Assembly: GCA_964541945.1 (NCBI GenBank)
Contig: CAZISE010000018.1
Coordinates: 5,260 to 69,259, forward strand
Reading direction: 5' to 3'
DNA length: 64,000 bases
DNA from: an uncultured Verrucomicrobiota bacterium
Lineage (GTDB): Bacteria > Verrucomicrobiota > Verrucomicrobiia > Palsa-1439
In this document: one piece after another, positions 20,507 to 35,493 of the stretch
Layout: each line of letters begins with the position of its first letter
Numbering within the stretch: position 1 is the stretch's first letter
Translations under genes and position numbers: made by a program
The notes under the pieces: model-generated
Database searches by the model: none
What the model was told of the DNA's origin: nothing
Seen by the model: only the letters and a program-made list of their open reading frames with translations

Positions 20507-23500
20507 CTACAACAGCGCCTCGCTACACACAATCCTTGGGACAGGATGCTCTTTGTCGGAAGCCCTCCGCCGATCCACCCAGTCGCGGAGGTTGTGCTGA
20601 TCGTAGAGCTTGGCGAGGGACTTGAGCAACGGCTGGCCGGTAACGCCGTTGCGGCGCAATAGATTCAATTCCTTGTTCACGGCACGGGTGACCGGACCAC
20701 GAAACGCTTTTTCGAGGACATTGATCATGGCCTTCTGATCTTCATCATCGGTCGCGGCGAACAGGACGCGCAGTTCGCGCAGGACATAGTTCTGGCCGTG
20801 GCTCAGCGACAATGTGTGCTGACGCTCAGCTTGCCGGTGTTTGACTTCCTCGGCGAAGATCCGTTGCGCGCGCATCACGGCGGCGTTGTAATCTTTCGGC
20901 AGCGGCAGGGCTTTGGTTTCCGGGACGCACTTGATGAGGCCGAGAATCTTCGGGATATCCTTCGAGACAACGTTGCCGGCTTCATCCAGCAGGAACAATT
21001 GCTGGTAGCCTTTTTGGTCCGGCTGGTTCGGGTAGGTGGCTTCGCAGAAAACGAACTGGCCTTTGTGTGTGGACAACTTGCCGGTGCGGATACCGTCGCG
21101 CAGGTCGGCGATGCGCTCGTATTCGGCGGGGTTCTCTTTGCGAAGTTGCCGGAGAATTTCCTCGGCTTCGTTGAGGTCGAGGAACTCCTCTTCCGTCTCG
21201 TCCTCGAACAGGCTCAACTGGCCGCCGTTTTTCTTCTCGTAGATGGCGTACATCGCGTCTTCGTTGAGCCGCTCGGTGCGGTCAAGTATCTCGGAATCCT
21301 CGCCGATGGTGTCGTGGATTTCCTGAATCCGGTTGTGGAGTTTCTGCTGGAGATTGAGGTTTTTCTCGATGCCGGTTTCCGGGAGGAAGTTGAAGCCATA
21401 GACGACATCGTGATCGCTGCCGATGCGGTCAATGCGGCCAAACCGCTGGATGAGCCTTACCGGATTCCAGTGCAGGTCGTAGTTGATGATATTGTCGCAA
21501 TCCTGCAGGTTCAAGCCTTCGGCTAGCACATCCGTCGCCACCACCGTCATCAACTCCGCTTCGCCGGCCGGGCGTTGATACTGCGGATTGGCTTTCGGCG
21601 CAAACCGGCCAACGACGCGCATCTTGCTTTTGTCGCCGCTGAAGATCACGTCAATGTCGTCGCGTTTGCCACCGGGATTGAGGTTCTCGTACAAATACCG
21701 GGCGGTGTCGGCGTATTGCGTGAAAATCAATCGCTTGCGGTCTTTGAGGGGCGGTTTGCTCAGATATTCCTTCAACTTCTGCAACTTCGCATCCTGTTCA
21801 GGCGTGATCGGCTCAACCAGTTGCAGGATCTTCTTCAGCAGTTTCACGTCATGCGCGATGGCAGCCTTTAGCTTCGGCAAGTCGAAATCGGCAATGTCGT
21901 ACCGGCCCGATACCTTCCGCAGTGCGTCCATCAAATCCTGTTCTTCGTCCTGGTTCGGCTCGTATAGGATCGCCTGCGCATCCTCGCCGGCCGGGACAAC
22001 CCCTTCGTCCAATGCTTTCAGGAATCGTTCGTGAACGACGAGCAGACGGCGGACGGTTTCCTTGAAGGCGAACACCGATGACTCAAACCGTTTGAACAGC
22101 AGAATGCGAATCAGCCCACGCAATGTCGCCCCCGCCCGTTGCAGGCTCGCGTACGGCTCGTGCTTTTGTTTCTCGGCAGGGACGTAGTTGTAAAGACCGT
22201 ACCGGGCATACGTAAGCTCTTCACCGGTTGGCTCGATGACCCGGCGGCGAAACCTACCGGGTTTTCCGAGGTAGCCGCGCAACTGCTGATACAGGCCCCG
22301 GTAGGTGTCCTCGATGCTGTATTCGATGGTCTCCAGCTCGCGTTTCGGGAAGAACTGATGCTTGCCGCCGACGATGACATAGGCGCGTTTCTTCCCGTCG
22401 AGGTAGTCCCGAAACCGCGACGGATCAATCGGTTGATTTGTCTCCGAATCAAACCCGTACCAGCGCAGGATGTGGTTGCGGGTGCGCCGAATCAGGATGT
22501 TTGCCAGCAAGTCCGGCAGCTTGCGCTCGCCCTTTTCGATCAGCTTGAAATAGTCCTTCAAATTCGGCGGATCCACCGGCAGGTCGGTCTTGTCGTCCTG
22601 ATGGAACAGTTTGATCTGGTGATAGACATCCCACGCGCTTTTGTTGCGCGGCGTGGCCGTCAGAAAACAGCACCGACGGCCCGTGCTCAGGAACGCCTCC
22701 ATCACCTTGTATCGCTGCGTGTCGGGATGCCGGAGATTATGGCTCTCGTCAATCAGCACAAAATCCCGGTCTTTGTAGAGCACATCCTCCAGCAGGCGGT
22801 TGACCGCCCCGGTGTCGTCCTCGCGCAACATGTCCATCGAAAGCACGCGAGCGTTGAGTTGATAGACCTCGTTGTATCGCTCCCACATCTCCGTCAACGG
22901 CGCCGGGCACACAATTAGCGACCGGGCATGATCTGTCCGCTCGAAATGTTTCACGATGGCCGCGCCGATGTAGCTCTTGCCCAACCCGACCACATCCGCC
23001 ACAAACGCCCCGCCGAAATCGCGGATCATCTGTACCGCCTGACGGACCGCCACCTTCTGGAAATCGGCCAGTCGCTTGGTGATCTCGTCGTCCCACAGAA
23101 TGTCTTTGTCGTCCTCGCCTTCGAGCCGGTCGCGCACCAGCGTGTAGAGCGTCTTCATGTACACGTCGTACGGGCGCACCGGCGCGACCGCCCACGACTG
23201 CTTCATCTCCTGCATCAACGCTTCGTCAAAATCCTGCGCTTCCTTCCAAAGCTCATCGAACCACTTCACCAACTCGGTGTGATTGTCGTTGCCCTGCACC
23301 AGCACGTTCAACTCGGTGTTGTGCGTTACGCCCGACAACGTAAGATTCGACGACCCGACAATAGCGATACCCTTCTCGTGCCGCTCGACCGGCTTACCGT
23401 CGCTGCCATAGACCTTGCCGTAATCGAAGATGTACGCCTTCGCGTGCAACCGGCCCTTCGTATAGACCTTCACCTTGAGCCGTTTCTGCTCGATCATCCG

Positions 23501-23875
23501 CACCAACGTTGTCACCACCGCCTGCGCCTCATCGGTCTGATCCATCAACTCGATGGCCGACCGGATGTTCTGGGCCGTTTCCCGCTGCATCTGTTTCTCG
23601 GCGTGACGTTTCGGATACGCCTCCGCCTCGCGCGCTTCCGCGACCAACTCCAACCGCCGGTACCCCTCCGCAATTTGCTCCAACGTCTCGCGGTTCGTCG
23701 TGTTGCCAATGAGCAACCGCAACTCCTTCAGCCCGGCCAGCCGCGACGCGATGCTCTCCAGCCCCGACAGAAAGAAATACCCCACCGCAAACCGCGCCGC
23801 TTCCGTGGACGACAGAATCCGGTTGATGTGATCCACCAGCTTCTCCTTGCGATTGTCGATTATGTCGTGCGCCAT
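20507..23875 (-). CDS. fused PLD-family nuclease (N-terminal single HKD) / SNF2-family SF2 helicase
   Basis: N-terminal HAKAYIFD...GSSNLT is the PLD HxK(x)4D(x)6GSxN motif. Motif I GLGKSYIGAAIV. Motif II VLIDESHNLR. Helicase-C domain ATDVLAEGLNLQDCDNIINYDLHWNPVRLIQRFGRIDRIG. Confidence 0.85.
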   Translation of the reverse strand: MAHDIIDNRKEKLVDHINRILSSTEAARFAVGYFFLSGLESIASRLAGLKELRLLIGNTTNRETLEQIAEGYRRLELVAEAREAEAYPKRHAEKQMQRETAQNIRSAIELMDQTDEAQAVVTTLVRMIEQKRLKVKVYTKGRLHAKAYIFDYGKVYGSDGKPVERHEKGIAIVGSSNLTLSGVTHNTELNVLVQGNDNHTELVKWFDELWKEAQDFDEALMQEMKQSWAVAPVRPYDVYMKTLYTLVRDRLEGEDDKDILWDDEITKRLADFQKVAVRQAVQMIRDFGGAFVADVVGLGKSYIGAAIVKHFERTDHARSLIVCPAPLTEMWERYNEVYQLNARVLSMDMLREDDTGAVNRLLEDVLYKDRDFVLIDESHNLRHPDTQRYKVMEAFLSTGRRCCFLTATPRNKSAWDVYHQIKLFHQDDKTDLPVDPPNLKDYFKLIEKGERKLPDLLANILIRRTRNHILRWYGFDSETNQPIDPSRFRDYLDGKKRAYVIVGGKHQFFPKRELETIEYSIEDTYRGLYQQLRGYLGKPGRFRRRVIEPTGEELTYARYGLYNYVPAEKQKHEPYASLQRAGATLRGLIRILLFKRFESSVFAFKETVRRLLVVHERFLKALDEGVVPAGEDAQAILYEPNQDEEQDLMDALRKVSGRYDIADFDLPKLKAAIAHDVKLLKKILQLVEPITPEQDAKLQKLKEYLSKPPLKDRKRLIFTQYADTARYLYENLNPGGKRDDIDVIFSGDKSKMRVVGRFAPKANPQYQRPAGEAELMTVVATDVLAEGLNLQDCDNIINYDLHWNPVRLIQRFGRIDRIGSDHDVVYGFNFLPETGIEKNLNLQQKLHNRIQEIHDTIGEDSEILDRTERLNEDAMYAIYEKKNGGQLSLFEDETEEEFLDLNEAEEILRQLRKENPAEYERIADLRDGIRTGKLSTHKGQFVFCEATYPNQPDQKGYQQLFLLDEAGNVVSKDIPKILGLIKCVPETKALPLPKDYNAAVMRAQRIFAEEVKHRQAERQHTLSLSHGQNYVLRELRVLFAATDDEDQKAMINVLEKAFRGPVTRAVNKELNLLRRNGVTGQPLLKSLAKLYDQHNLRDWVDRRRASDKEHPVPRIVCSEALL

Positions 23876-23881: not shown

Positions 23882-25033
23882 TCACGGAAACAATCCGTTC
23901 CTCCCATCCATGATTGCCGCCAGTGGGACGGCTTCCACCCGGTCGTGCATGGTGTACCGTTGCGAGCCGGGATAGATCACGGCGATTCGTTCCAGCGTCA
24001 AATCTTCCAAAGCAATTCGCATCGAAGGGGTCATCTTGGGCGCATCTACTCGCTTGCACTCCACGCCATACAACCGACCTTCTTTCTGCAACACCAGATC
24101 AATCTCCGCCCCTTGATGCGTCGCCCAAAAATAGGCCGCGTCCGGCGCGACCGCCTTTAACGTCTCCTCCACCACATAACCTTCCCACGACGCGCCGCAC
24201 TTCGGATGCCGCTCCAACTCCCCCGCGTCGCGGATGCCCAACAGGTGATGCAGCAACCCGGTATCGCGGAAATACACCTTGGGCGACTTCACCTGCCGTT
24301 TCTTCAAATTCGCATGCCAAGCCGGCAACTGCCGGACCATGAATAGGTCGTTGAGTAAATCCAAGTAACGCCGCGCCGTCGTCTCGCCAATGCCCAGCGA
24401 GCGGGCCGGTTCCGCCGCATTCCAAATCTGGCCGTGATAATGCGCCACCATGCTCCAGAACCGGTGCAACGTCAGCGCCGGTGCCGCAAACCCCAGTTGC
24501 GGCACATCACGCTCCAGAAACGTCATCACAAACTCCTGCCGCCACCGAAACGATGCCGCTTCATCCGCCGCCAAGAACGACAGTGGAAATCCGCCCCGCA
24601 ACCAATGCCGCTCCTGCGCCGGCAACCCGACTTCTTGCAAGCTAAACCCGCCCATCAAGACCCGTTCGATTCGCCCCGCGAGTGATTCCGACGACTGTCG
24701 CAACAGCGCTGGTGATGCGCTGCCAAGAATCAAAAACCGGGCTGGCAAGGGTTCACGGTCGGCCAGCACCCGCAACACCGGAAACAGTTCCGGTCGCCGT
24801 TGCACCTCATCAATCACCACGATATCCCGCAGATTTCCCAGCGCCGACATCGGCTCGTCCAAGCGCGCAATATGACGCGGGTCTTCCAAGTCGAAATAAT
24901 TGGCTAACTCGGCCGGTACAATCTGGCGGGCCAAGGTCGTCTTCCCGCACTGACGCGGCCCAAGCAGCACCACTATCCGGCTCCGTTTCAGAGCCGCCCG
25001 TACCTGCTCCAACAATTGCGTGCGAGGAATCAC
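23882..25033 (-). CDS. AAA-family ATPase with DUF4143 C-terminal domain
   Basis: Walker A VVLLGPRQCGKTTLA. Walker B IVVIDEVQ. C-terminal DUF4143-like region (YFRDTGLLHHLLG...WEGYVVEE). GTG start at 25033. Confidence 0.8.
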   Translation of the reverse strand: MIPRTQLLEQVRAALKRSRIVVLLGPRQCGKTTLARQIVPAELANYFDLEDPRHIARLDEPMSALGNLRDIVVIDEVQRRPELFPVLRVLADREPLPARFLILGSASPALLRQSSESLAGRIERVLMGGFSLQEVGLPAQERHWLRGGFPLSFLAADEAASFRWRQEFVMTFLERDVPQLGFAAPALTLHRFWSMVAHYHGQIWNAAEPARSLGIGETTARRYLDLLNDLFMVRQLPAWHANLKKRQVKSPKVYFRDTGLLHHLLGIRDAGELERHPKCGASWEGYVVEETLKAVAPDAAYFWATHQGAEIDLVLQKEGRLYGVECKRVDAPKMTPSMRIALEDLTLERIAVIYPGSQRYTMHDRVEAVPLAAIMDGRNGLFP

Positions 25034-25074: not shown

Positions 25075-25252
25075 TTTCAGCCTCATGTTGCAACCTATTG
25101 CGGGAACGCATCCTACCATGCCACCTGCAGCCAAAAATTCCGCATTCACAGGTTATCCTTTGGATTTTTCATGGTAGCTTCGCATCTGCGTTCTTCACCT
25201 TCAGCCCTCAGTTTTTAGCCTTTCCCTTCCGCCATCTTGATTTCCTCCGGCG

Positions 25253-25516
25253 TCAGGCCGTAGAAGCGATAACCGAGCTGTGCGAGATGCCGTCGTGTGT
25301 GTGGCAAACGTGCTGGTCTATCTCACGCTCCGGCGCCGACGTGTTTACCGCCGGATCAGGACGCTTCGAGACAAGATCATGAACCATATTTCTTGACCGT
25401 TTTTTCGCGGACGACGGTTGCCGATTCGGCAATGGCATAGTCCATGGCACGAGGATTTTCCATCCGTTCGGAGGCGTCCAGGATTTCCATGCCGACGAGA
25501 TTGCCGTCTTTGTCAT
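25253..25516 (-). pseudogene. degenerate relic of a methyltransferase C-terminal tail (frameshifted copy of the ...ALEREIDGxVYALYGLTPEEIKIVEE motif)
   Basis: ORF contains RPDPAVNTSAPEREIDQHV, homologous to ANPAADTSALEREIDGLV of the other two copies. The rest of the motif (YGLTPEEIK) is present in the +1 frame. Confidence 0.45.
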
Positions 25517-25877
25517 AGTCGAGGATGACGCCCGGCTTGTCCTCGTCGCTTTCCTCGATTGGGGTGTTGCGGAACAGAATCCGCAGCACGTCCACTTCGG
25601 GGTCGTAGATTACTTTCATGGTTGTCTCCAATACTTGCTGATCTGGCTGGTCCGATATACGGTTGACCACCACCGCTGGCTCGACCGTATCATCCACAAT
25701 CGCCCGCACCAGCATGATTCTACCACCACCCACATCCACTTGCGACTGGTAAGCTTTCTTGGGCGGTCGTTCGGGCACAATCTGCTGGGGCTGCCGCAAC
25801 ACCTCGTCCACCACGTCGCGCGGGATGCGGCGCAACACCAATTCTGATTCGGCATGGCTGGAGTACCGGAATGTCAT
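25377..25877 (-). CDS. DUF4258-like / DUF2283-like toxin-antitoxin-type protein, the two domains fused in one reading frame
   Basis: N-terminal half (ESELVLRRIPRDVVDEVLRQPQQI) matches DUF4258. C-terminal half starting MKVIYDPEVDVLRILF...DYDKDGNLVGMEILDAS matches DUF2283. No stop codon between them. Lower GC than surrounding DNA. Confidence 0.55.
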   Translation of the reverse strand: MTFRYSSHAESELVLRRIPRDVVDEVLRQPQQIVPERPPKKAYQSQVDVGGGRIMLVRAIVDDTVEPAVVVNRISDQPDQQVLETTMKVIYDPEVDVLRILFRNTPIEESDEDKPGVILDYDKDGNLVGMEILDASERMENPRAMDYAIAESATVVREKTVKKYGS

Positions 25878-26143
25878 TTTCCCGCCCCTTCCTCCACAAT
25901 TTTGATTTCCTCCGGCGTCAGGCCGTAGAGGGCGTACACCATCCCGTCTATCTCCCGCTCCAACTTGGTCGCGCCGATGGCGATGCGGTCGTGACTGGCC
26001 TGGCTCAACAGGCTGTAGCAGATGTCTTGAACGAGCGGCGTGTTCATGATCTCGGTTGCACTCGGATTATCGGTGGCATGGTCTATTCGCTCATTTAGGC
26101 GGCAGATCATCTTTCGGGTTAAATGGAACTCCCCATCCCCCAA
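25874..26143 (-). pseudogene. relic 3' end of a gamma-class N6-adenine methyltransferase / type IIG gene (C-terminal tail only)
   Basis: 89-aa ORF ending ...IGATKLEREIDGMVYALYGLTPEEIKIVEEGAGK*. This is the conserved extreme C-terminal motif of PglX / type IIG enzymes. 65 bp are near-identical to the copy at 26786-26855. Confidence 0.5.
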
Positions 26144-26759
26144 GCGGTGAAGCGTAAAACTCGTCTTTTCGCCCGTTCGCGATCAACCACTTCACGAACT
26201 CTTTGCCCTTTTCAGTAATTCGCAACATCGGTGTAGCGTCTTTTGTAACCAACTCAATAAATCCTGTCCCATTCAGCTTCCGCAAGAACTCGTCACCCCG
26301 AAAGCCACCAGTAGCCCACCCCTTACCGCGTGTTCCATGTTGATACGTATGTCCAAACGGAACGTATGGAAATAGGGCATTCTTTTCCGCCATGAGAATC
26401 AGGTGTTGTTTGAAGGTGTTATCTATAATGTTGTCGATAAGTTGATACACTGCGGTGGTGTCTGTTGGATTGCTTGCAACTTTTGCTGCCTGCTGAACAA
26501 CAGGAGCCCCTTGGATGGCATCTACAAAATCCTTTGGTGAAATATTCCCGAAGTCCGATGGCGAGTAGAAGTGGTATGGCTTGTGCCAAAGGATGTAAAA
26601 AAATGCTGACGCAATGCCAATGGCGAACAGCATGACAAACACCGCGAGTGCGCCTTGAATCCATGAATCTGTCTTGGTGACAGCGTAACCCAAAACGGCT
26701 TCTGTAAAGGTCACGAATATCGAGATGATCCAAAGTGGGGATAACTTGCTGGGATGCAT
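26091..26759 (-). CDS. hypothetical membrane protein (2 N-terminal TM helices + soluble C-terminal domain), cassette gene
   Basis: ATG at 26759..26757 (MHPSKLSPLWIISIFVTF...), preceded by AGGTGA inside the preceding tail micro-ORF. About 45% GC versus >60% for flanking DNA. Confidence 0.45.
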   Translation of the reverse strand: MHPSKLSPLWIISIFVTFTEAVLGYAVTKTDSWIQGALAVFVMLFAIGIASAFFYILWHKPYHFYSPSDFGNISPKDFVDAIQGAPVVQQAAKVASNPTDTTAVYQLIDNIIDNTFKQHLILMAEKNALFPYVPFGHTYQHGTRGKGWATGGFRGDEFLRKLNGTGFIELVTKDATPMLRITEKGKEFVKWLIANGRKDEFYASPLGGWGVPFNPKDDLPPK

Positions 26760-26761
26760 AT

Positions 26762-26893
26762 TCACCTCTTCGCGCTTTCCTCGACGATTTTGATTTCCGC
26801 CGGCGTCAGGCCGTAGAGGGCGTACACCAACCCGTCTATCTCCCGCTCCAGCGCCGACGTGTCCGCCGCCGGGTTCGCCCGCTTCGCGCTCAT
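26762..26893 (-). pseudogene. 43-aa micro-ORF encoding only a methyltransferase C-terminal tail (MSAKRANPAADTSALEREIDGLVYALYGLTPAEIKIVEESAKR*)
   Basis: Read from the reverse complement of 26762-26893. Its ATG overlaps the stop of fragment 26890-27405 as ATGA. Third copy of the tail repeat. Confidence 0.45.
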
Positions 26894-27405
26894 TTCTGCC
26901 CGGCCTCCTTGATGATGCGGACTTCTTCTACCTTTCTCAGATCGGCGAGCATGGCAGGGGGCGGGCTTTTTTCGGCGGCGGCTTGCAACGCTTGCAACGC
27001 AGCCAGCTTTCCTGCCTGCGCCGCGCTTCGCTTGTCCGGCGCGGCAGGCAGGTGCTTCGTGGGGATTTTCGACAAGTCGGGCGGGGCGGGCTTCGCGGTG
27101 GCGTCAAACAGCGTCAGCCGCCGGGCGCGCAACTCGCCGGGGAAGAACAACTCATACACCAGCCCGTTCAGCCACCGCTCGAAATACGCCACCAGCAGCC
27201 CCACCGACTCCTTCGTCACGCCGGGCGTGTGCAGCCAGATCCACGCCGCCGCCAACCGCTCGCACCACATCCGCTGCGCCTGTGCCATTGCAGCCGCTTT
27301 CACGTTCGTGCTTCCGTGACGGCTTTCGCGGGGGAATCGGGATTTGTGTTGGATTGAGCCGCCGGCTCCACGAACGAAACCGACGGCAGGATGATCATCG
27401 GCCAC
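26890..27405 (-). pseudogene. diverged duplicate of the 3' ~400 bp of the PglX-like methyltransferase gene (C-terminal fragment, with a 17-aa insertion)
   Basis: ...WCERLAAAWIWLHTPGVTKESVGLLVAYFERWLNGLVYELFFPGELRARRLTLFDATAKPAPPDL...KVEEVRIIKEAGQK is colinear with the last ~130 aa of 28634-32551 (WCERLAEALIWLHSPG...KVEEVRIIEEAGQTRG). Nucleotide identity roughly 85-90%, with one indel block. Confidence 0.6.
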
Positions 27406-27752
27406 GGACCACGCGCCGTAATACCGGCAATCATTTCGCGAGCCGCCGCATACAGAAGGCTTGCTCCATTGACGCGCACCAACTGCTCGACTTTGTCTTT
27501 CGGAAACTTGTCGCTGACTGTGAACAATCCCACGAACTCACAGTTGCCGGAATATGCGGGCGGCTCTTTACCGGTCGTGGCGAACTCCACCCGAAGCGAC
27601 ACCATCCATTGCAGCGGATCATCTTTCTTCCGCTGAGTGCAGGTCGGCTTCACGTCCACCCGCAGTTCGCCCTTGTGTGTCGCGCCGGGGCTGGCGTCCA
27701 CATGGATATGCGAGACGAAATGCCGGTCAAGCCGCAAGGGCGAGGGCTTCAT
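27300..27752 (-). CDS. SecB-like chaperone of a toxin-antitoxin-chaperone (TAC) module
   Basis: LRVEFATTGKEPPAYSGNCEFVGLFTVSD...LLYAAAREMIAGITARGPWPMIILPSVSF aligns with E. coli SecB [25 protein letters not shown]...[33 protein letters not shown]. Confidence 0.65.
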   Translation of the reverse strand: MKPSPLRLDRHFVSHIHVDASPGATHKGELRVDVKPTCTQRKKDDPLQWMVSLRVEFATTGKEPPAYSGNCEFVGLFTVSDKFPKDKVEQLVRVNGASLLYAAAREMIAGITARGPWPMIILPSVSFVEPAAQSNTNPDSPAKAVTEART

Positions 27753-28170
27753 TGGTCGCCTCCGGTTTGGTGGTCACGGTGGTTGTCGCGGACGCGGGGA
27801 GTGTGCATTCTCGCCGCCAAGTCAACGGCTCGGCTTGGATTGCGGGCACTTCTTCCACCGCGTCCCAGACATCGAGCCACTGGGTCTTTGTGCCGATGGG
27901 CTGCAAATGAACGCGGACATCGGCGTTCAATGCGCGCGCAATCTTCACCATGGTTTCGAGGGTGAAGTTGGTGCTGCCACGCAGCACTTTCGTCACGTAC
28001 GCCGGGCTGGCATTCAGCCGTTTCGCCAGTTCCGCATTCGACACACCCTCCGCCTCCATCCGTGCGACGATCTCCTCGGTGAATTCGAGGATCACGCCTT
28101 CCACATAGTACGCCAAGCGTTTCCGGGCGGTCTCGAACAGTTGCTTGAACGTTTTTTTATTGCTGCTCAT
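27727..28170 (-). CDS. XRE-family HTH antitoxin with C-terminal extension (putative chaperone-addiction segment)
   Basis: Start MSSNKKTF (ATG 28170..28168, overlapping the toxin stop). HTH: VSNAELAKRLNASPAYVTKVLRG. About 50-aa C-terminal tail beyond the HTH fold, ending in a Thr/Ala-rich segment. Confidence 0.6.
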   Translation of the reverse strand: MSSNKKTFKQLFETARKRLAYYVEGVILEFTEEIVARMEAEGVSNAELAKRLNASPAYVTKVLRGSTNFTLETMVKIARALNADVRVHLQPIGTKTQWLDVWDAVEEVPAIQAEPLTWRRECTLPASATTTVTTKPEATNEALALAA

Positions 28171-28604
28171 AAGATTGTTTCCTCGATGACGATGACTTGT
28201 TGCGTCTGTCTTGCGATTTGGTACTTCTTTTTCCATTCTTCCGCGCGCTTGACTTCCCGACTTAGCCGTTTCTCCTGGCTCTTCGGGAAGCCATGCGTGC
28301 AGATGATCAACCGTCCCGCATCATAGAACCACAGCACGCGCACCCCACCGCGCGTCTTGAACTCAAACAAATCCTTTCCCACCGGCCGGCACTTCTCTTT
28401 GTTGCGCGGCGGCTCGTTGTCCGCCACAAACTCCAGCAACCGCACCAGCCGGGCATGCTCATCCGCATCGCTCGCCTCCAACTCGTTGAGGAAATCCTCC
28501 AGAGGCCGATTTGGCTCAACGTTTTCACCGACCACGGGCCGTTCTTCGAGCGCATAGATGGCATAGCGTTGTCCTCTGCACACCCTGTGTAGAACAACTC
28601 TCAT
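28167..28604 (-). CDS. RelE/ParE-superfamily toxin of the Gp49/HigB-like (DUF891) type
   Basis: KDLFEFKTRGGVRVLWFYDAGRLIICTHGFPKSQEK is the Gp49-like signature. Immediately followed by the XRE antitoxin and the SecB-like gene. Confidence 0.6.
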   Translation of the reverse strand: MRVVLHRVCRGQRYAIYALEERPVVGENVEPNRPLEDFLNELEASDADEHARLVRLLEFVADNEPPRNKEKCRPVGKDLFEFKTRGGVRVLWFYDAGRLIICTHGFPKSQEKRLSREVKRAEEWKKKYQIARQTQQVIVIEETIL

Positions 28605-28611
28605 GCTATCT

Positions 28612-28641
28612 TTAACCTATAGGTTAACATCCGTCAACCCC
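28612..28641 (-). promoter_or_regulatory. putative promoter/operator of the TAC operon: perfect 16-bp palindrome TTAACCTATAGGTTAA (28612-28627) between a TTGACG -35-like hexamer and the toxin ATG
   Basis: Seen directly. Minus strand reads GGGTTGACGGATG-TTAACCTATAGGTTAA-AGATAGC-ATG. The palindrome is 7 nt upstream of the toxin start and typical of HTH-antitoxin autoregulation sites. Confidence 0.5.
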
Positions 28642-31600
28642 TTGTTTGCCCCGCCTCCTCGATGATCCGCACTTCTTCCACCTTGCTCAAATCCGCGAGC
28701 ATGGCGGGGAGCGGGCTTTTGTCGGCGGCGGCTTGCAACTCTTGCAACGCGGCCAGCTTTTGTTTTTCTGGGATTTTCGCGAGGTCGGGCGGGGCAAGCT
28801 TCGCGGTGGCGTCAAACAGCGCCAGCCGCCGGGCGCGCAACTCGCCGGGGAAGAACAACTCATACACCAGCCCGTTCAGCCACCGCTCGAAATACGCCAC
28901 CAGCAAGCCGGTCTCCGTGGGTCGGGCGCGACCGCCAGGAGAATGCAGCCAGATCAACGCCTCCGCCAACCGCTCGCACCACCCACGCTGCTCCACAGTC
29001 GCAGAGGGGATGGGGATTTGCTCGACATACTGAGATATAAACCGGAGGTAGCCACCTCGAATCATGTTGCTTGTCTGCCGATAGAACCAAAGAACCGTGC
29101 TTGAATTAAGCACCGGGACAACCCACTCTGGCGCTTGAACCATGTAACCCGTGTTTCCGAGAAAATGCTTCCCAATGTCCCAAGCAAACTGTGTTGTCTC
29201 GGCAATGTCCGGAAACACAACTTTCCCGGGGATTTCGAAACTCTCCCAGTAGGCGGTGTTGTCCTGAATCTCATACCACTCGTAGTTACCGGGTTTTCTT
29301 CCTCCTGGGATGCCGGGAATGAGTTGCTTCTTGAATTGCTTTAAGTGCTCGTGAATTGCCGGATACTTCCAAATATCGCAGCCACGCCGCGTGAAGATTA
29401 GCCACAGGTCTTGCGAATCACACCGCCACCGCTTCACATCGCGGCCACGCAGAAAGGGCTTGAGCAACTCAGCGGATGATTTGTGTTCAGCAATCAGTCG
29501 GTCGCGTGTTTGGCGGTCCACAACAAAGGCTTCGTTCCTACCGGTCGTCACTCCGCGATAGAACCTCTCTCCGCAATACTCGCCGAGCGGCTTACCGGCT
29601 TTTCGCATTCGTTCGAGGAGGCGGAGGCTTACCGGGCTTTCGAGACGCCAGCCGTCGGGTTTGAGGTCGCGTTGGGCGATGGCGTGGGCTTCGGCATCGA
29701 ACAGGTCCGGGAAGTCCAGCAGCACTTTGCCGGGATTCCAAGTGTGGACGCGGACTTGCCAGTCGGCGGGCGGCAGGTTGGTGGCGTGGAGGATGCCGGT
29801 GGGGCTTTGCGGGTCGGGCAGGCGTTCGACGTGCCGGGTTTTCTCGGCAACGAGGATGCAGGGATAGGCGATGGAGGTGAACACGGGGGCGTCGCCGAAA
29901 TCGAGGATGGCGCGGGGATGGGTAGCGTAGAAGAGGTAGGCGCGCAGCCGTTCGCCGTAGGCGGCCCGCATGTATTTGTTGGAAGTAACGAAGCTGAGGA
30001 CGCCGCCGAGTTTGAGGAGTTGGAAGCTGCGCTCGAAGAAATAGACGTAGAGGTCGGCGGTGCCGGTGTAGCATTCGTATTGGTCGCGGAGGGCGTCCTT
30101 GAGCGGACGCGGTTTGCCGTCGCTGCCGGTGACGGTGACGTTTTTGAGTTCTTCCTGCCGTACGTAGGGCGGGTTGCCGACGACGATGTCGAACACTGCG
30201 CCGCGGGCGTCCTCCGGTAGGGACGGACCGCCGGGCCGTCCGTCCGTGGCATCACTCGGCGCGCCCGGCGGTCGCGCCCTACCACCGGTCAGGCCGAACA
30301 TCCAGGCGGGATCGAAGAAGGGGGCGGCTTTGTTGGTGTCGTAGGGATTCCACGCGGCGAGGCGTTGGGCGTCGTAGGGGGAACATTCGCCGCTGTCGGT
30401 GAGGGCGGCGGCGAGTTGGTCGCAGAGTTGCTTGTCGCGGGCGCGGAGGGCTTTTTTGTCTTTGTAGCGGCGGGCGGTGAAGTAGTCGTGTCGGACTTGT
30501 TGGAGTTCGCGTTCGAGTTTGCGGACGGTGTCCGAGCCGAGGAGGAGTTGGCCGCGCTGGAGGCCGAGGAGGGTGTTGGCGGCGACGATCTTGGTTTCGA
30601 GGTTGGGCAGTGGGAGGATGCCGTAGTTGGGTTGTTTGGGGTCAATGGACTGGTCGCAGATCAGCGAGATGAAGAAGCGGAGCTTGGCGATCTGGCAGGC
30701 GATGGGCTGGATGTCCACGCCGTAGAGGCAGTTTTCGATGAGGTAGAGTTTGCGGCCGTAGTCGTCGTTGTCGCGGGCGAAGGCGCGTTCGATGGCTTGC
30801 CGGGCTTCGTCGCGGGCGGGGGCGCTCTCGAAGGTGTCGAGCGCGGCTTCTTGCCGGCGACGCCAGCCTTTGTTTTCGGGGTCGAGTTTGCGGAGGACGT
30901 GGACGAGTTTCTGGAGCATCCCCATCGGGAAGGCCCCGGAGCCGCAGGCCGGGTCGAGGACTTTGAGGTGGTCAATGGCGTCAATGAGTCGCTCGACTTC
31001 TTTCGGGGTGAAATCGTGCCCGGTATCTTCCCAGGAGAGCAGCCGGCGGAGGCGGGGGTCGTTGGGTTTATTGAGCGCCTTTTCCAGATGCGCCAGCAAC
31101 GCCTGATCCACCATCCAGTCCACTACGACGCGCGGGGTGTAGAACGAGCCGGTCGCCTTGCGGGCGATGGTGCCGGTCTCCGGGTTGTAGGCGGCCAGCA
31201 GGTTCTCGAAGACGTGGCCGAGCAGTTCGGGGTCGAGGGCGACTTCCTGTTCGAGCGGGGTGTTTTCGGTGAGGGTAAAGTTGTACCGGCTCAGGATCGA
31301 GAGCAGCGGGCGCACCGTCTCGCGTCGCCTACCGGCATCGCCATACGCGCCGGAAAGATCAGCCACTTGATCCGCGCCAAAGAACAGGAAGTTCGGCAGC
31401 TTGGGCTGTTTCTTCGGGTCGTTGGAGAAGCCGTCAATGCGGATTTCGTCGGTGAAGTTGGATTTGCCGCGCTGCACCCGGTCGTCGAGGCACTCGAACA
31501 GGCCGCCGTTGAGGAACGGCACTTCGCGCAACAGCTTGGCGAGGGCGTCGGGATCACGGAGGAGGCGTTGGTTTCGCCAGAGCGTGTGGATCATGTGGTC

Positions 31601-32551
31601 GTTGCTGCGCTGGCCGTCGCCTTCCTCAATGAAGCGGCGGTTGGGCGGCTCGCCCGGCTTGTCCATTTCGGTGTTGAGCGTGGCGAAGAAGAGGTTTTGC
31701 AGGATGGCCGGGTAGTAGGTGCAAGCGTCAGGCGAGGCATCCTTGAGCAACCCGGCAATACCGCGCGGTTCGAACAGCACGTCCGGCAACAAGCCTTCGC
31801 CCGTGACCGGGTTGCGTTTCTCGCGCAAGAACCAGCAGAAGATCAGCCGCGTGAGTAAGCGAATAAGGAACAGAGCGCGGTCTTCCTTTGTTTGGACATC
31901 TTTGGGGAAGACGACCTGACGGCAATCCCGCGCCCAGAAATACCAGTTGGCGATTTCGGTGTAGAAATCCTTGGTGACCTTCTCGACATCGAACGCTTCG
32001 TCGTGCCGTTGCTGAATCTCCAGCGCCGAGAGGCCGAACATGTCGCGCTCAAACGACGCGAGGTCGAGCAAAGCGAGTCGTTCGCTGGCCGTCCGTTGCC
32101 CCTCCCCGGCATGGACGGTGATCCGGCGGAACAGGCGGCGTTTCTCTGGCGTGTCGGCGTATTTGACGTTGAGGAAATGCCAGCGGTCTTGCGCTTTGTT
32201 GGAGAACACGAACAGCGCATACGGATGCTCGCGCAACAGGCGTGTCACCACCGGCCGCTCCGCGCCGAGCAGCAGCCGGTCGGATGCCAGCCGACCATAG
32301 ATCACATGGAAATCGCCATTCTCGCCCCCACCGGCAAACAGCACCGGATCCTCCGCCAACGCCTGCGCTGCCGACTCCGTCCACCCTCGCCGCGACAACG
32401 GCTGATTCACCCGCTGATAATTCAGCTCACGCCAAAACAACTCTTTCAGCGGCTCAATCCCGCGCAGTTCCTTGAGCAACTCCAACACCTGCTGTTGTCG
32501 TTCCGGTTTCGCCATGACGCGCAGTGTAACCGGGCGGGATGTGTGGGACAA
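28634..32551 (-). CDS. PglX/MmeI-like gamma-class N6-adenine DNA methyltransferase (1305 aa; type IIG/IIL or BREX/DISARM-type methyltransferase)
   Basis: SAM-binding motif I VLDPACGSGAFPMG. Motif IV VVGNPPYV. N-terminal region with the hhhRLhFhhFLxEK pattern (FLIRLLTRLIFCWFLREKR) shared by MmeI/PglX N-termini. C-terminal target-recognition-like region. Starts at TTG 32551 or ATG 32515. Confidence 0.85.
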   Translation of the reverse strand: MSHTSRPVTLRVMAKPERQQQVLELLKELRGIEPLKELFWRELNYQRVNQPLSRRGWTESAAQALAEDPVLFAGGGENGDFHVIYGRLASDRLLLGAERPVVTRLLREHPYALFVFSNKAQDRWHFLNVKYADTPEKRRLFRRITVHAGEGQRTASERLALLDLASFERDMFGLSALEIQQRHDEAFDVEKVTKDFYTEIANWYFWARDCRQVVFPKDVQTKEDRALFLIRLLTRLIFCWFLREKRNPVTGEGLLPDVLFEPRGIAGLLKDASPDACTYYPAILQNLFFATLNTEMDKPGEPPNRRFIEEGDGQRSNDHMIHTLWRNQRLLRDPDALAKLLREVPFLNGGLFECLDDRVQRGKSNFTDEIRIDGFSNDPKKQPKLPNFLFFGADQVADLSGAYGDAGRRRETVRPLLSILSRYNFTLTENTPLEQEVALDPELLGHVFENLLAAYNPETGTIARKATGSFYTPRVVVDWMVDQALLAHLEKALNKPNDPRLRRLLSWEDTGHDFTPKEVERLIDAIDHLKVLDPACGSGAFPMGMLQKLVHVLRKLDPENKGWRRRQEAALDTFESAPARDEARQAIERAFARDNDDYGRKLYLIENCLYGVDIQPIACQIAKLRFFISLICDQSIDPKQPNYGILPLPNLETKIVAANTLLGLQRGQLLLGSDTVRKLERELQQVRHDYFTARRYKDKKALRARDKQLCDQLAAALTDSGECSPYDAQRLAAWNPYDTNKAAPFFDPAWMFGLTGGRARPPGAPSDATDGRPGGPSLPEDARGAVFDIVVGNPPYVRQEELKNVTVTGSDGKPRPLKDALRDQYECYTGTADLYVYFFERSFQLLKLGGVLSFVTSNKYMRAAYGERLRAYLFYATHPRAILDFGDAPVFTSIAYPCILVAEKTRHVERLPDPQSPTGILHATNLPPADWQVRVHTWNPGKVLLDFPDLFDAEAHAIAQRDLKPDGWRLESPVSLRLLERMRKAGKPLGEYCGERFYRGVTTGRNEAFVVDRQTRDRLIAEHKSSAELLKPFLRGRDVKRWRCDSQDLWLIFTRRGCDIWKYPAIHEHLKQFKKQLIPGIPGGRKPGNYEWYEIQDNTAYWESFEIPGKVVFPDIAETTQFAWDIGKHFLGNTGYMVQAPEWVVPVLNSSTVLWFYRQTSNMIRGGYLRFISQYVEQIPIPSATVEQRGWCERLAEALIWLHSPGGRARPTETGLLVAYFERWLNGLVYELFFPGELRARRLALFDATAKLAPPDLAKIPEKQKLAALQELQAAADKSPLPAMLADLSKVEEVRIIEEAGQTRG

Positions 32552-32595
32552 GGGCGGAATCGGCGTGAACGCGATACGCGAGCGTTTTGCGCGCT

Positions 32596-34764
32596 CTACC
32601 GGTACAGACGCAGGAGACGTGTTTCGCCTCGTTGGATTGGCAATGCGAACTTCGGGCCTTGTCCCACCACCTCATCTGTCAGGGCATCGTGGATCGGTTG
32701 GGCAACGCCGGTGTTGATTTCCAGCGGACCGTCCTGCGAGGCGTGCAGGACGAGGAACGGGCCGTTGGCATAGACATTGCAGTCGGTCTCGGTGAACAAG
32801 TGGACGCCGGCGGCGCGGGCGGCTTCTCGGAGTGATTCGCTGGTCAGGCCGCTCTCATTCACGAACAGGGACCTGCCGTGGCCGCGTTCGCGGGCGATTC
32901 GCGCGATCCGTCGTTGTTCGGCCGGGGTGAAACACCAACCGTTGACGAACACGAACAATTTTGCCTGCACGCGCCCGGCAAGCACATCGTCGAGTAGGTA
33001 TTGGCCGTACGGGGCGCCCATCCGTCCGAGCGCGGCGCGTCCCTCGTAAACCGTTTTGCGGGAAATGGGCACGGCGCCGGGAGCCACGCGCAACATGCGT
33101 TCTTCATCAATCACCACCGCTACTTCGGGGCGAAACGGCGTGGGCTTCTTTAAGAAATACGCGTCGAGTTTCTCCAGCCGTTTCATCTCGGCCCACATGC
33201 CGGGGTCGTTGAACCAGCCGCTGGAGCCGAGGTCCATCCACCACGTCCCAAAGTTGCGGAGCGCCTCCTGCGCGACGTTGCGGACAAGCAGGGCATTTGT
33301 TTCTTCGAGCGTTGCAACGGGGGCGTGCCAGGACCCAATACCCGTTGCCAGATAGGTGTTCGTATCGTCCTCGTGGAGCCACATCTTGCCGGCCAACGCC
33401 ACGCTCTCCGCTGCCGTCATCGAAGGCGCACTCTGGCCGAGGCGGCGGTCGAAATACGAAATCGGCGAGCAAAGCACGTCAATGTCCGGACAATCCAGCA
33501 TCCGCCGTAGGGCGTAGTGTCCCGATGTGGCGGGGCCGTTGGCCACGGGGCCAAACTCGAACACGTAGCCGTAGAAGAACAACACCAACTTTTTCCCATG
33601 CGACGCTTTTCGCACGGCACGCGCGAGTTCGATGACGCAATCGGCCATCGCTTCCTGTTGGAAGCGGTTCCAGTCCGTGACGGTGGCCGACGCAAACATA
33701 TTTGTCGTGCGCCGCTCGGCGGGTGTCGGCACCGGCATTGGCGGTTTGCCGTGCCTCTTCAGCCAGTGATGCCACGCGGCAAGGTCGGCGGGTGCATACC
33801 CGTTGAACGGGCGTTTCCACGTGTCCATGTAAAACCACTCGCCGGTATTCTGGCCGATCGGATGATATCCCGCGATGGTATCTCCGAATTTTTCTTCGAG
33901 ATGTTCGATCAGCGCAGTGAGCCGTTCGGCGGCATCGCGACGGTAGCGCGGTGAGGCCGGAACAACGTAGCCACGGTGCCCGTCGTCCCATTGCATCATT
34001 TCGTCGGGATACGCCTCGCTCCACCAAGTGGGCGGCCTCATCGAGATACGCGGCACCAGCAGAGCGTTGGGGTTGACGCGCAAGACGGTCTCGCAGAGCT
34101 TATCCACGCTGCTCCAGTCCGCTGGAGTGCCGGGTTTGGGCCAGGGTAGCGGGATGGGGAACGTAACGAAGTTGGCACCGGCGTTGGCGGCAAGTTTGAT
34201 CTGCGACTCGAACACATCCGGCGGTCCACCGAGGCGGTCGAAGCAGATGAACGGCGGGCCGGGACGGTAGAAGGCGACCTGCAACGGACAGCCCGGTGTG
34301 GCGCGGGCGTGGAAGCTGACCCGATAACGCTGTCCGGCGACGATGGAGAGATTTTGCCGGGAGTAGATGTGAAAATCGTTGCCTGGTTTTGTCAATTTGA
34401 CACGCAGGACGCCGTCACGCCTCTGAAGGGCGTCCTTCATGCTCGGCGGCCAGACAATCCAATCGTCGAGTGGTTGCTCGTTGAGCGTGATGTCGCGCAA
34501 CTCCACTTCGACGGGGCGTTTGCCGAATCGAAAGTGCATCGTGCCGTTGGTGGCGCTGTCGGTAGCCAGAAACTCGAACTGGACGTGCCGCCAATCGTTG
34601 GAAACCGGAATCGGCGCGGCACCGGGCGCGCCCCAGAACATTCGGGCGCGAACCGGTTGGCCGTTGACGACGATGCGTGGCGCGCCGTTGGGTGATTCGA
34701 CGCGGACGGTGAGGGCAAAGGTGGCGGGCATCACGACCAGTCCGAACAAAGTAGTCCATCTCAT
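32596..34764 (-). CDS. secreted glycoside-hydrolase-like protein (N-terminal beta-sandwich + TIM barrel, GH42/GH35-like), putative
   Basis: AAGGAGA RBS precedes ATG 34764 (MRWTTLFGLVVMPATFALTV, signal peptide). TIM-barrel-like segments (FVTFPIPLPW, LVLFFYGYVFE, HEDDTNTYL). Family assignment uncertain. Confidence 0.4.
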   Translation of the reverse strand: MRWTTLFGLVVMPATFALTVRVESPNGAPRIVVNGQPVRARMFWGAPGAAPIPVSNDWRHVQFEFLATDSATNGTMHFRFGKRPVEVELRDITLNEQPLDDWIVWPPSMKDALQRRDGVLRVKLTKPGNDFHIYSRQNLSIVAGQRYRVSFHARATPGCPLQVAFYRPGPPFICFDRLGGPPDVFESQIKLAANAGANFVTFPIPLPWPKPGTPADWSSVDKLCETVLRVNPNALLVPRISMRPPTWWSEAYPDEMMQWDDGHRGYVVPASPRYRRDAAERLTALIEHLEEKFGDTIAGYHPIGQNTGEWFYMDTWKRPFNGYAPADLAAWHHWLKRHGKPPMPVPTPAERRTTNMFASATVTDWNRFQQEAMADCVIELARAVRKASHGKKLVLFFYGYVFEFGPVANGPATSGHYALRRMLDCPDIDVLCSPISYFDRRLGQSAPSMTAAESVALAGKMWLHEDDTNTYLATGIGSWHAPVATLEETNALLVRNVAQEALRNFGTWWMDLGSSGWFNDPGMWAEMKRLEKLDAYFLKKPTPFRPEVAVVIDEERMLRVAPGAVPISRKTVYEGRAALGRMGAPYGQYLLDDVLAGRVQAKLFVFVNGWCFTPAEQRRIARIARERGHGRSLFVNESGLTSESLREAARAAGVHLFTETDCNVYANGPFLVLHASQDGPLEINTGVAQPIHDALTDEVVGQGPKFALPIQRGETRLLRLYR

Positions 34765-34908
34765 GGTTTTGATGTCTCCTTTACGAGGCGAAACGTCTGT
34801 GTGGTTGGTTTGGCGGCGTTGGGACGCGGTTTCATGGTCGGGCAAAGACCGTTGATACGTCCCATAACAGACAGGCAACCATCCCGTCAAGCGCGCTAAC
34901 GAATTTGA

Positions 34909-35493
34909 TCATTGCGAGGGGCGGGCGCGAACGATTTCCAGCGTGAACGGATCGCCGGGCTTGCGCGGCTTGGGCGGCACGGTGGCGACGATGTAAAGGC
35001 CGTCAGCCCCGGACGCGAATAGTTGTTTGGCGCCCAAGATGCCGTTGAGGATGGCGACCACTTTGGGCAACGGTGTCGGTAGTTGAGCCAGTTGGGACGG
35101 CGAGAATTCCGGGAACCCGTAAAATGACACCACGGCGTCCACGCCGGCATGTTTCTGGAAGAGGGCGACGAATTCGGGCGGACGCAACGGATCAATCGCC
35201 ACCGTCTCCACCGCAACAATGCTGAGCCCGGGCTGTTTCCGAAGAGCTTTCTGGAACGCCTTCACTTCCGCGCCGATGACGGGCGAGTCGAGTTCGCCCG
35301 CGATCACGACGACACGCCCCTTTTGGCCGAGCAATTTGGCGGTTTCCTCGGCGGCCCTGATACCGATCTCTTCGTATGGGCCAAGTTTGAGGGACGGTTT
35401 TTTATGCCACCAGGTCCGGCTTGCGGAGAACAGGGCAACACCACTGGCAAAAATCGCCGCCGCCAGAAGCAACAAAATCCGTCGGTCGTTCAT
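34909..35493 (-). CDS. hypothetical membrane-anchored periplasmic protein
   Basis: N-terminal TM anchor RILLLLAAAIFASGVALF. No recognisable motif. Confidence 0.35.
   Translation of the reverse strand: MNDRRILLLLAAAIFASGVALFSASRTWWHKKPSLKLGPYEEIGIRAAEETAKLLGQKGRVVVIAGELDSPVIGAEVKAFQKALRKQPGLSIVAVETVAIDPLRPPEFVALFQKHAGVDAVVSFYGFPEFSPSQLAQLPTPLPKVVAILNGILGAKQLFASGADGLYIVATVPPKPRKPGDPFTLEIVRARPSQ

Follow-up and report, generated by a model that had tools for sequence, protein, structure and literature searches.

The stretch analysed here, a piece of contig CAZISE010000018.1 from an uncultured Verrucomicrobiota bacterium and hereafter called the window, is 64,000 nucleotides (nt) long and carries on its minus strand a gene for a full-length DNA methyltransferase, followed by a series of unrelated short genes (passengers) that are separated by copies of methyltransferase 3'-end sequence. 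All of the elements named in a preliminary description of this region were found in place, on the minus strand. Related loci, most of which lie on metagenomic contigs, are referred to by numbers of the type L001. The features of the locus, beginning with the methyltransferase gene, are as follows (ORF, open reading frame; aa, amino acids):

28634..32551, minus strand: full-length Eco57I/TaqI_C-type N6-adenine methyltransferase (Pfam, PADLOC)
28167..28604, minus strand: toxin of a toxin-antitoxin-chaperone (TAC) module, Gp49/HigB-like (Pfam PF05973, 2.8e-13)
27727..28236, minus strand: TAC antitoxin with a helix-turn-helix (HTH) domain, XRE-type (Pfam HTH_3, 1.1e-9)
27300..27752, minus strand: TAC chaperone, SecB-like (Pfam SecB, 1.1e-9; PADLOC PD-T4-9_C)
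26890..27280, minus strand: A relic, a copy of the type-A C-terminal module of the methyltransferase, within ORF 27405..26890
26762..26893, minus strand: tail 1, an intact 43-aa mini-ORF, MSAKRANPAADTSALEREIDGLVYALYGLTPAEIKIVEESAKR, equivalent of a type-B methyltransferase C-terminus
26091..26765, minus strand: membrane-protein passenger of 224 aa, family-less, of lower GC and with a truncated 3' end
26088..26096, minus strand: AAATGAGCG, a 9-nt remnant of an A-module stop/tail start junction, copy of the relic/tail-1 junction
25874..25981, minus strand: tail 2, a type-B C-terminus reduced to its last ~35 codons, ending ...ATKLEREIDGMVYALYGLTPEEIKIVEEGAGK
25377..25877, minus strand: DUF4258-DUF2283 passenger, one ORF of 166 aa (Pfam DUF2283, 6e-20; DUF4258, 2e-4)
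25215..25380, minus strand: tail 3, decayed, with an ATGA-overlap start, a premature stop and a frame change
23882..25033, minus strand: DUF4143/AAA_14 ATPase (Pfam, 1e-47; PADLOC candidate PDC-S01, 1.6e-91)
20507..23875, minus strand: HKD (PLD)-SNF2 helicase (PADLOC 'HKD+Snf2', 1e-80)

The methyltransferase ORF encodes 1305 aa, and the database protein P0001 begins at an ATG 12 codons in. The product matches the Pfam families Eco57I (2e-33) and TaqI_C (9.4e-11), both over the gathering thresholds, as well as the type IIG restriction endonuclease-methyltransferase models of PADLOC. A gamma N6-adenine methyltransferase domain and a TaqI_C-type target recognition domain (TRD) are thus combined in one polypeptide, as in type IIG enzymes. 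For residues 1–440, Pfam gave no match at E ≤ 0.01, and none of the families reported for the protein is a nuclease family, which is not proof of absence; the separate HKD-SNF2 protein is a candidate nuclease of the system. The system that hosts the array is a two-gene, restriction-like pair consisting of the Eco57I/TaqI_C methyltransferase and the HKD-SNF2 helicase, its presumed restriction partner.

Comparison of homologues revealed that this methyltransferase family has two interchangeable, well-conserved 3'-terminal modules, which follow a hypervariable TRD: the long type A of about 350 bp (~120 codons), and the type B 'tail' of about 130 bp. The resident gene ends in a type A module (about 28994..28637). 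Endings of this type (...CERLAEALIWLH...FEQWLNGLVYELFFPGEL...VVRVIEE...), tail-free like that of the resident gene, were found in 87 of the 120 best homologues, and type B endings (...LVxRILAAKKADPxADVSALEREIDxxVYRLYGLTxEEIKIVEG) in about 15 of the 120; homologue P0011 retains just a few fused tail residues. The resident methyltransferase is complete and needs no tail. The tails of the window, which had been described as relics of the C-terminus of this very gene, are instead type-B termini, i.e., the alternative C-terminus found in its homologues.

Three tails with a shared motif (...LEREIDxxVYxLYGLTxEEIKIVE) do separate the passengers, as had been proposed. Tails 1 and 2 are 93% identical over 80 nt (26771–26850 and 25883–25962, respectively), a repeat longer than the ~65 bp given earlier, and tail 3 matches tail 1 at 81% over 53 nt. 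In a tblastn search with tail 1, tail 2 was recovered at 76% identity (E = 9e-13) and tail 3 with an E-value of 1.5e-5, while a 32-mer of the repeat has three occurrences at ≤3 mismatches, compared to 0 expected in 100 shuffles. Given the 80-nt identity, the match of tail 3 and the 32-mer count, the observation of a tail repeat stands. The copies are in different states of decay: tail 1 is intact, tail 2 is N-terminally truncated, and tail 3, the most distant from the methyltransferase, is frameshifted. The upstream part of tail 2 has been replaced by unrelated sequence, so that no nucleotide similarity to tail 1 exists before LEREID, and tail 3 has a ~35-nt insertion (about 25307..25273) as well as a disrupted frame. 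The '89-aa tail ORF' reported earlier (26143..25874) has a TTG start and is tail-like in its last ~30 codons, the remainder being unrelated to the tail. Tail 1 gave no match to any Pfam or NCBIfam family.

The core of the motif, GAG CGG GAG ATA GAC (E-R-E-I-D), lies at 25315–25329, 25945–25959 and 26833–26847 (minus strand). Across 17 distinct tails from 10 loci this core is kept at third codon positions; its Ile codon is the rare ATA in 10 tails, ATT in 6 and ATC in 1, and the second conserved Ile favours ATC. A constraint acting on the core at the DNA level is possible.

The ~400-bp diverged duplicate of the methyltransferase 3' end is real. This A relic (27280..26890) aligns with 28994..28647 of the methyltransferase gene at 84–90% nt identity with a 14-codon insertion; the two copies share 72% aa identity, with a synonymous divergence (pS) of 0.28 and a ratio of non-synonymous to synonymous divergence (pN/pS) of 0.47. 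The relic ends in ...VRIIKEAGQK, and its TGA overlaps the ATG of tail 1.

According to the preliminary description, each relic is translationally coupled to the preceding gene through ATGA. Such stop/start overlaps were found at four junctions, namely 26893–26890 (relic/tail 1), 26094–26091 (after the membrane gene), 25877–25874 (tail 2/DUF4258) and 25380–25377 (DUF2283/tail 3). The 89-aa ORF is not coupled in this way, and the ATG at 26094 opens just M-S-E-stop. From tail 1 to the membrane gene, the transition is GTGA, or an ATG 2 nt downstream. In a clade of type-A methyltransferases (L015, L018, L026, L065, L075, L100–105), the methyltransferase stop overlaps the ATG of a ~45-aa tail ORF, the overlap being a conserved ATGAGCG, and the whole A-stop/ATGAGCG/tail arrangement seen at tail 1 is common to L015, L018, L026, L065, L075 and L100. 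Since the junction of the window A relic and tail 1 equals that of the clade, the order 'A module / ATGA / tail' is inherited and of older date, and some of the ATGA coupling, at the least, looks to have come with it. The junction at the membrane gene reuses AAATGAGCG: this element (26096..26088) is identical to the relic/tail-1 junction (26895..26887) and supplies the stop codon of the truncated gene.

The type-A clade is also informative with regard to the far side of the tail. The contigs L101, L102, L103 and L105 end 110–140 nt past the tail stop, and close relatives (L015, L018, L026, L065, L075, L100) diverge about 20 nt after it. On both grounds, the end of the tail would be a boundary of population-level variation.

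The identity of the TAC and DUF4258-DUF2283 passengers was confirmed by Pfam. The former consists of a HigB/RelE-type toxin, an HTH antitoxin and a SecB-like chaperone in three overlapping ORFs; the likely start of the antitoxin is the ATG at 28170 (residue 23), which overlaps the toxin stop in an ATGA (28167–28170, minus strand). Because its SecB-like gene matches PADLOC PD-T4-9_C, the TAC module may be an anti-phage system, beyond a mere addiction module. A lower GC content had been ascribed to the inserted cassettes in general. It is clear for the membrane-protein cassette (0.47–0.51 vs. about 0.58–0.62; at third codon positions, 0.51 vs. 0.7–0.78), and the other cassettes are not clearly lower.

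The closest homologue of the membrane gene, P0242 (84% aa identity), is encoded in L106, 2 nt past the hsdR gene of a Type I restriction-modification (RM) system. At the nucleotide level, homology of the membrane gene is confined to 26765..26106 and ends 15 nt upstream of AAATGAGCG, which indicates that the last ~34 codons have been replaced. A truncated passenger is thus directly observed joined at a relic junction, and this 3' junction points to an illegitimate join, still visible at the A-stop/tail-start remnant. The 5' junction (stop codon, AT, ATG) is the same after the hsdR of L106 (L106:8001-8753) and after tail 1 (26759–26767). In L109–112, the membrane gene stands alone beside a HicA toxin-antitoxin pair among housekeeping genes.

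The last ~40 nt of the DUF4258-DUF2283 ORF have a match in L007, at the end of an unrelated ORF of 53 aa lying ahead of a tail (0/300 shuffles). That the end of the DUF2283 ORF is a diverged A-module end was unsupported, with 41/300 and 238/300 shuffles scoring as well. DUF4258 (toxin-like) and DUF2283 (antitoxin-like) are fused in the window and form two separate small genes in L090–L098, where they adjoin tails on the opposite strand.

The decisive comparison is provided by L009, which represents the same locus in a close relative. The flanks of the two loci share 91–96% nt identity, and the segments correspond as follows:

Window 37667..30555 and L009 1–7107: 91% identical
Window methyltransferase TRD and C-terminus and, in L009, a methyltransferase with a type-B tail, behind which the final ~75 nt of a type-A module are left as an orphan: different
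Window 28713..27040 (A end, TAC, first 240 nt of the A relic) and L009 8567–10240: 96.5% identical
Window tail 1, membrane gene, tail 2, DUF gene and tail 3 and, in L009, AAA_15, SLFN_AlbA_2 and an A fragment: different
Window 25222 onwards, within 5 nt of the tail-3 stop, and L009 14454 onwards: about 95% identity, which extends over the ATPase and the helicase

The N-terminal ~665 codons of the two methyltransferases are 91% identical, whereas the TRD and C-terminus are unrelated or of the other type. The 96.5% block covers the last 80 nt of the methyltransferase gene, the TAC module and the first 240 nt of the A relic. Breakpoints fall inside the A relic, just after the tail stop, and 80 nt before the A stop at a short CGCTCCCCGCC match, which is the right junction of the replaced L009 methyltransferase segment within the A module. 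Close relatives thus differ by entire segments, with breakpoints located within methyltransferase 3'-end relics or at their edges; the exchange of segments at strain level is a direct observation. The gene order at the repeat boundaries is not invariant, and the tails are not C-termini of intact, unrelated genes. The cross-strain comparison for cassette variation at the tail repeats, which the preliminary description had suggested, therefore favours exchange at the repeats. In addition, L009 has an 89-aa gene (L009:15827-16096) between the DUF4143 ATPase and the helicase that is absent from the window and identifies another small site of insertion in this operon.

Independent arrays were found in L007, L008 and L096–98 and, together with the L009 comparison, bear out the earlier view that cassettes bounded by methyltransferase 3'-end sequences have been gained or exchanged repeatedly. 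In L007, a methyltransferase 75% identical to that of the window is followed by an AAA_15/21 ATPase, SLFN_AlbA_2, an A relic and then six further passenger units punctuated by five tails, several of which are intact 48–56-aa ORFs joined by ATGA to their neighbours. L008 contains a methyltransferase, three cassettes (an unknown gene, DUF3800 and Fic) with two decayed tails, and then the helicase, while L096–98 have a tail, two genes and a second tail. The repeats, the two C-terminus types and the recurrence of the pattern at other loci are observed directly. An [A]-AAA_15-SLFN-[A] unit is common to L007 and L009 (77% nt identity), and a '240-aa gene / ATGA / tail' unit is shared by L088 and L096 (72% aa identity) with different upstream genes; judged from these shared units, passengers appear to move with the flanking modules. 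Across the arrays the passengers are heterogeneous and unrelated to the methyltransferase (TAC, the membrane protein, DUF4258-DUF2283, AAA_15/SLFN, Fic, DUF3800, DUF5131), and most of those seen are family-less.

Two further peculiarities of tails were recorded. REP-like (repetitive extragenic palindromic) sequences, GGCACAGGCATTCCTGCCTGTGC... and ACAGACAAGAATGTCTGT, replace the N-terminal part of two L007 tails (20908–21102 and 21821–22000). The same ~27-nt insert (LPAPxxRQAGG) breaks LYGLT in tails of two unrelated loci, L007 and L096:2464-2727.

Stand-alone tails are common in sequence databases. In a search of a 5.8-billion-protein set, the best 120 matches were all complete ORFs of 42–86 aa with an M, V or L start. 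They begin at many points of the type-B terminus, i.e., relic lengths vary. A representative library clustered at 50% identity yielded 19,199 tail matches at E ≤ 1e-3 and 3,042 at E ≤ 1e-10, and 111 of the best 150 were shorter than 150 aa. An exact look-up of tail 1 retrieved only a 2-kb contig, L114, with the same arrangement, and a scan of genome contigs with the C-terminal 421 aa of the methyltransferase only five distant loci (34–42% identity). Among viral contigs, the tail profile detected 15 loci, each with one tail of lower identity and no arrays, which were assumed to be ordinary methyltransferase C-termini; a tblastn search of plasmids with the tail consensus returned just two cyanobacterial methyltransferase C-termini. 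In L099 (8610-10225), the gene that precedes a 74-aa stand-alone tail ORF encodes a C5 cytosine methyltransferase (PF00145) and not an Eco57I-type enzyme, indicating that tail relics also occur outside the family's own loci.

Several observations concern the methyltransferase homologues themselves. P0002 (87% identical; L006:3939-4264), the closest non-identical one, has a frameshift in its type-A module, so that the C-terminus is read in an alternative frame, and an AAA_21 ATPase gene lies directly 3' of it in L006. Homologues P0004, P0075, P0087 and P0118 contain, in frame and between two conserved methyltransferase segments, a Y1 transposase (RayT/PF01797) domain of ~250 aa (residues 482–731 in P0004). 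In the window methyltransferase, the equivalent of the insertion point is near residue 494, at a position of about 31070. These cases represent either a REP-mobilising transposase within a defence gene or a fused gene call.

As regards the neighbourhood, the DUF4143 ATPase gene, separated from tail 3 by 180 bp, is a conserved neighbour and also adjoins tails or the methyltransferase in L009, L088 and L100. The space from tail 3 to the ATPase start contains a perfect inverted repeat, AAAATCCGCC ttgctgt GGCGGATTTT (25055–25095, minus strand), which has the look of an operator or weak terminator and was not reported by the consensus terminator scan. The promoter and terminator scan, which is weakly informative, found nothing on the coding strand within the array. 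Membership in BREX (bacteriophage exclusion) or DISARM (defence island system associated with restriction-modification) was rejected by curated NCBIfam thresholds (PglX, 72 vs. a cut-off of 400; DrmD, 159 vs. 610), and no PglZ, BrxC or DrmA/B was seen among the genes of the locus. The DUF499-centred 'BREX-related' type (PMC12839542) was rejected as well, as the DUF499 and DUF3780 that it requires are absent here. Of the related loci, 34 extend for 3 kb or more past the methyltransferase on the downstream side, and in 22 of these the helicase is found directly upstream of the methyltransferase or 1.3–5.8 kb downstream of it. From this spacing, the gap between the modification (M) and restriction (R) genes would be a general insertion hotspot.

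The region is best read as an array of recombination scars in the gap between the M and R genes. Serial displacement and accretion without a recombinase, in which the relics act as homology arms, is to our judgement the probable, though by no means certain, explanation of the array as reconstructed from the compared sequences. DNA from a related locus would recombine by means of the conserved methyltransferase body or of the A or B modules, used as a homologous anchor. The other end would join in another copy of a module, through ordinary homologous recombination, or at a microhomology, through homology-facilitated illegitimate recombination (HFIR). Each event would replace the TRD and the 3' end and/or import passenger genes, and the previous 3' end would be pushed downstream and survive as a relic (here the A relic and tails 1–3). 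Being direct repeats, the relics could then serve as homology arms for later exchange with no dedicated recombinase required, which would make the genes between them swappable among strains. We infer the recombination pathway (RecA/HFIR) and the order of events, and take the passengers to be, putatively, defence or addiction genes that benefit from the operon.

The divergence of the repeats is in line with this. Within arrays, tails differ by a pS of 0.17–0.47 and the two A copies by 0.28, far more than the 3.5% between the same segment of the window and L009, which suggests that the copies of an array come from different alleles and not from fresh duplication. Variable breakpoints and variable relic lengths also point to homology-anchored recombination rather than to a site-specific system. 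The gradient of decay among the window tails, with the worst-preserved copy at the greatest distance from the methyltransferase, counts in favour of displacement as well.

Several points weigh against serial displacement. The evidence is all comparative, no recombination event was observed, and the related loci are mostly metagenomic contigs. Arrays are a minority: among the 66 type-A methyltransferase loci with at least 500 nt downstream, only about eight have tails or an A relic there. Many passengers overlap the following tail by ATGA, an arrangement that random illegitimate joins are expected to produce ~1/3 of the time. The decay gradient of the window is not general, as the most distal tail of L007 (T5) is intact, and for no single insertion was an empty-site relative found. 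Finally, the stand-alone tail ORFs look selected, which is unexpected for pure scars.

The last point introduces an alternative to scarring, namely that the tail is a functional mini-gene of ~45 aa, with each module or cassette having its own translationally coupled copy, arrays that owe their existence to selection of the mini-gene, and recombination at the tails as a by-product; we regard it as rather unlikely. The peptide is the helix motif in which type IIG-like enzymes end. It might function in trans, with the methyltransferase, TRD or helicase as its target, or else the mini-gene might serve the coupled expression of the next gene. In six orthologous stand-alone tails located after methyltransferase genes, pN/pS was 0.31 overall and 0.23 in the motif, with the first 17 codons near neutral. 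The substitutions comprised 18 synonymous and 22 non-synonymous ones (p = 0.007 against neutrality). As a control for these ratios, 100 aligned methyltransferase codons were used, and an ungapped control of 135 codons was disregarded. The pN/pS of 0.2–0.4 between tails of an array has the same direction, although ratios within arrays cannot separate current selection from recent membership of a functional gene. By these values, conservation of the tail mini-ORF looks higher than expected for a scar. A functional role is also favoured by the abundance of stand-alone copies (the 120 complete ORFs of 42–86 aa, the 3,042 library matches at E ≤ 1e-10 and the 111 short ones among the best 150) and by the frequency of ATGA overlaps with upstream and downstream genes alike. 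However, broken copies are numerous: tail 3 of the window, T3 and T4 of L007, both tails of L008, and those of L075 (TAG at codon 6), L029 (truncated) and L022 (degenerate). Moreover, the G of the otherwise invariant LYGLT is changed to W in two copies, the tail is absent from most type-A methyltransferase loci, P0011 keeps its few tail residues in fused form, and the mini-gene ORF belongs to no curated family (Pfam, NCBIfam), which was counted against a functional role. The low pN/pS could also result from recent residence in functional type-B genes or from refreshing by gene conversion.

A combined reading, to which we likewise give little credence, is that the tail is a selected, portable module of ~45 codons, mini-gene and homology arm at once, that defines a widespread recombinase-free cassette system. 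Restriction-like operons, probably of Planctomycetota/Verrucomicrobiota-type lineages, would collect and exchange toxin-antitoxin and defence genes between tail repeats, and ATGA coupling would keep each cassette within the chain of translation of the operon. The tail peptide might, in addition, work in trans on the methyltransferase or on its partners.

Duplication in situ is still less probable than either. Passengers would have been inserted into the methyltransferase 3' region by some mechanism linked to RM systems, with a long target duplication (130–390 bp), the copies having diverged in place; the phenomenon has been documented in numerous bacteria for RM genes (PMC2853133). Each passenger is indeed flanked by direct repeats of one and the same target region, but the pS of 0.28 between the A copies, set against the 3.5% divergence of the same segment between the window and L009, and that of 0.17–0.47 among tails of one array speak against duplication in situ. 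In addition, tail 2 shares no nucleotide similarity with tail 1 upstream of LEREID, and the empty-site allele was not recovered.

The integron-like mechanism suggested in the preliminary description, in which a recombinase encoded in another part of the genome would use tail DNA as its attachment site, is very improbable: in spite of the cassette-like layout of short, mostly co-oriented units separated by a repeat, and of the GAG CGG GAG ATA GAC core kept at third positions (the rare ATA included), neither strand of the tails has excess hairpin potential, relic lengths vary, the breakpoints of the window and L009 lie at different positions in different modules with no fixed core, and neither a recombinase domain among the flanking ORFs nor an integrase among the called genes of L007, L008 and L009 was detected. 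Folding of tails 1 and 2 as DNA on both strands gave z-scores of +0.44 to +1.05, with 134–176 of 200 shuffles folding at least as well, and attC-like sites were ruled out on this basis. Pfam analysis of the ten largest flanking ORFs (11.7–20.4 kb and 32.6–38.9 kb) revealed no integrase, transposase or recombinase domain; the genes inside the locus are annotated by Pfam otherwise than as integrases or transposases, and the flanking genes are ordinary chromosomal ones.

Sequential displacement by HFIR has been proposed for the effector-immunity arrays of V. cholerae's system for type VI secretion (T6SS) and for Rhs loci (PMC5361080): a conserved gene part holds the arriving DNA, whose other end joins illegitimately, and the former 3' end is moved downstream. 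Orphan arrays formed by 'C-terminal displacement' at Rhs/CdiA loci are treated in PMC3967940, and by Jackson et al. 2009 as cited in PMC5361080. As in those arrays, a conserved gene part anchors the alleles here and the variable 3' part is replaced, while the displaced 3' end and the neighbouring gene stay downstream and vary among strains; for them, too, a recombinase-free process, HFIR, was proposed. The window and L009 share a conserved anchor followed by a variable 3' part in divergent alleles, and displaced, strain-variable fragments lie downstream. In the window these are three tails plus the A relic; L009 has an A relic, an A fragment and an orphaned A end of 75 nt, and further arrays occur in L007 and L008. 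In contrast to T6SS, Rhs and CdiA, the host gene encodes the DNA methyltransferase of a restriction-like system instead of a toxin, what is left as a relic is the conserved 3' extremity after the variable domain (the ~45-codon helix motif or the ~120-codon module), and relics often persist as translationally coupled mini-ORFs. The passengers (TAC, membrane protein, DUF4258/DUF2283, ATPases, Fic, DUF3800) are unrelated rather than cognate immunity genes; the downstream genes are not cognate partners, and the membrane gene is also found after a Type I hsdR and alone. The array thus works like the Rhs/T6SS orphan arrays but lacks cognate partners, and it is not an integron.

Replacement of TRD alleles, or 'domain movement', is known for Type I and Type IIG RM genes (Furuta, Kobayashi and colleagues: PMC2853133, PMC3077401). 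The window and L009 are similarly close strains with different TRDs and C-termini in a conserved Type IIG-like gene; those reports, however, concern clean swaps within the gene, whereas orphaned 3' ends accumulate here and non-RM passengers are captured. The long target duplications described for RM genes (PMC2853133) resemble the present locus in that inserted genes are flanked by target-derived direct repeats of 100–400 bp with no mobile-element genes. The present repeats differ in being diverged, of different alleles and serial at one site (84–93% nt identity, pS 0.17–0.28 vs. the 3.5% strain divergence, with no empty-site allele recovered), and the inserted DNA is not an RM system.

Integrons and CALINs (clusters of attC sites lacking integrases) likewise have compact, mostly co-oriented, promoter-less cassettes and a recurring element of ~100 bp downstream of a fixed gene, but the repeat here is the end of a protein-coding gene without an attC-like fold, there is no IntI, and the junctions vary. 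Phase-variable hsdS/pglX shufflons consist of partial silent gene copies that carry alternative TRDs, with inverted repeats and a site-specific invertase. Partial 3' copies do lie beside a full specificity gene in the window as well; unlike in shufflons, they are free of TRDs and form direct rather than inverted repeats, with no recombinase in the flanking ORFs. A specificity shufflon was ruled out for these reasons.

If serial displacement is correct, the array represents a route of defence-island growth, visible at the sequence level, that proceeds without mobile-element machinery: the conserved end of a restriction gene would act both as an anchor for TRD swapping and as a landing pad that traps passengers between modification and restriction genes. 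The 'C-terminal displacement' logic of polymorphic toxins would thereby be extended to restriction-modification-like systems. It would also explain the thousands of small, unannotated 'methyltransferase-like' ORFs in metagenomes, and the tail motif offers a search handle for new candidate defence or addiction genes. Should the tail peptide be functional, it would constitute a new kind of accessory factor, formed by the terminal helix that has split off from a Type IIG-like enzyme.

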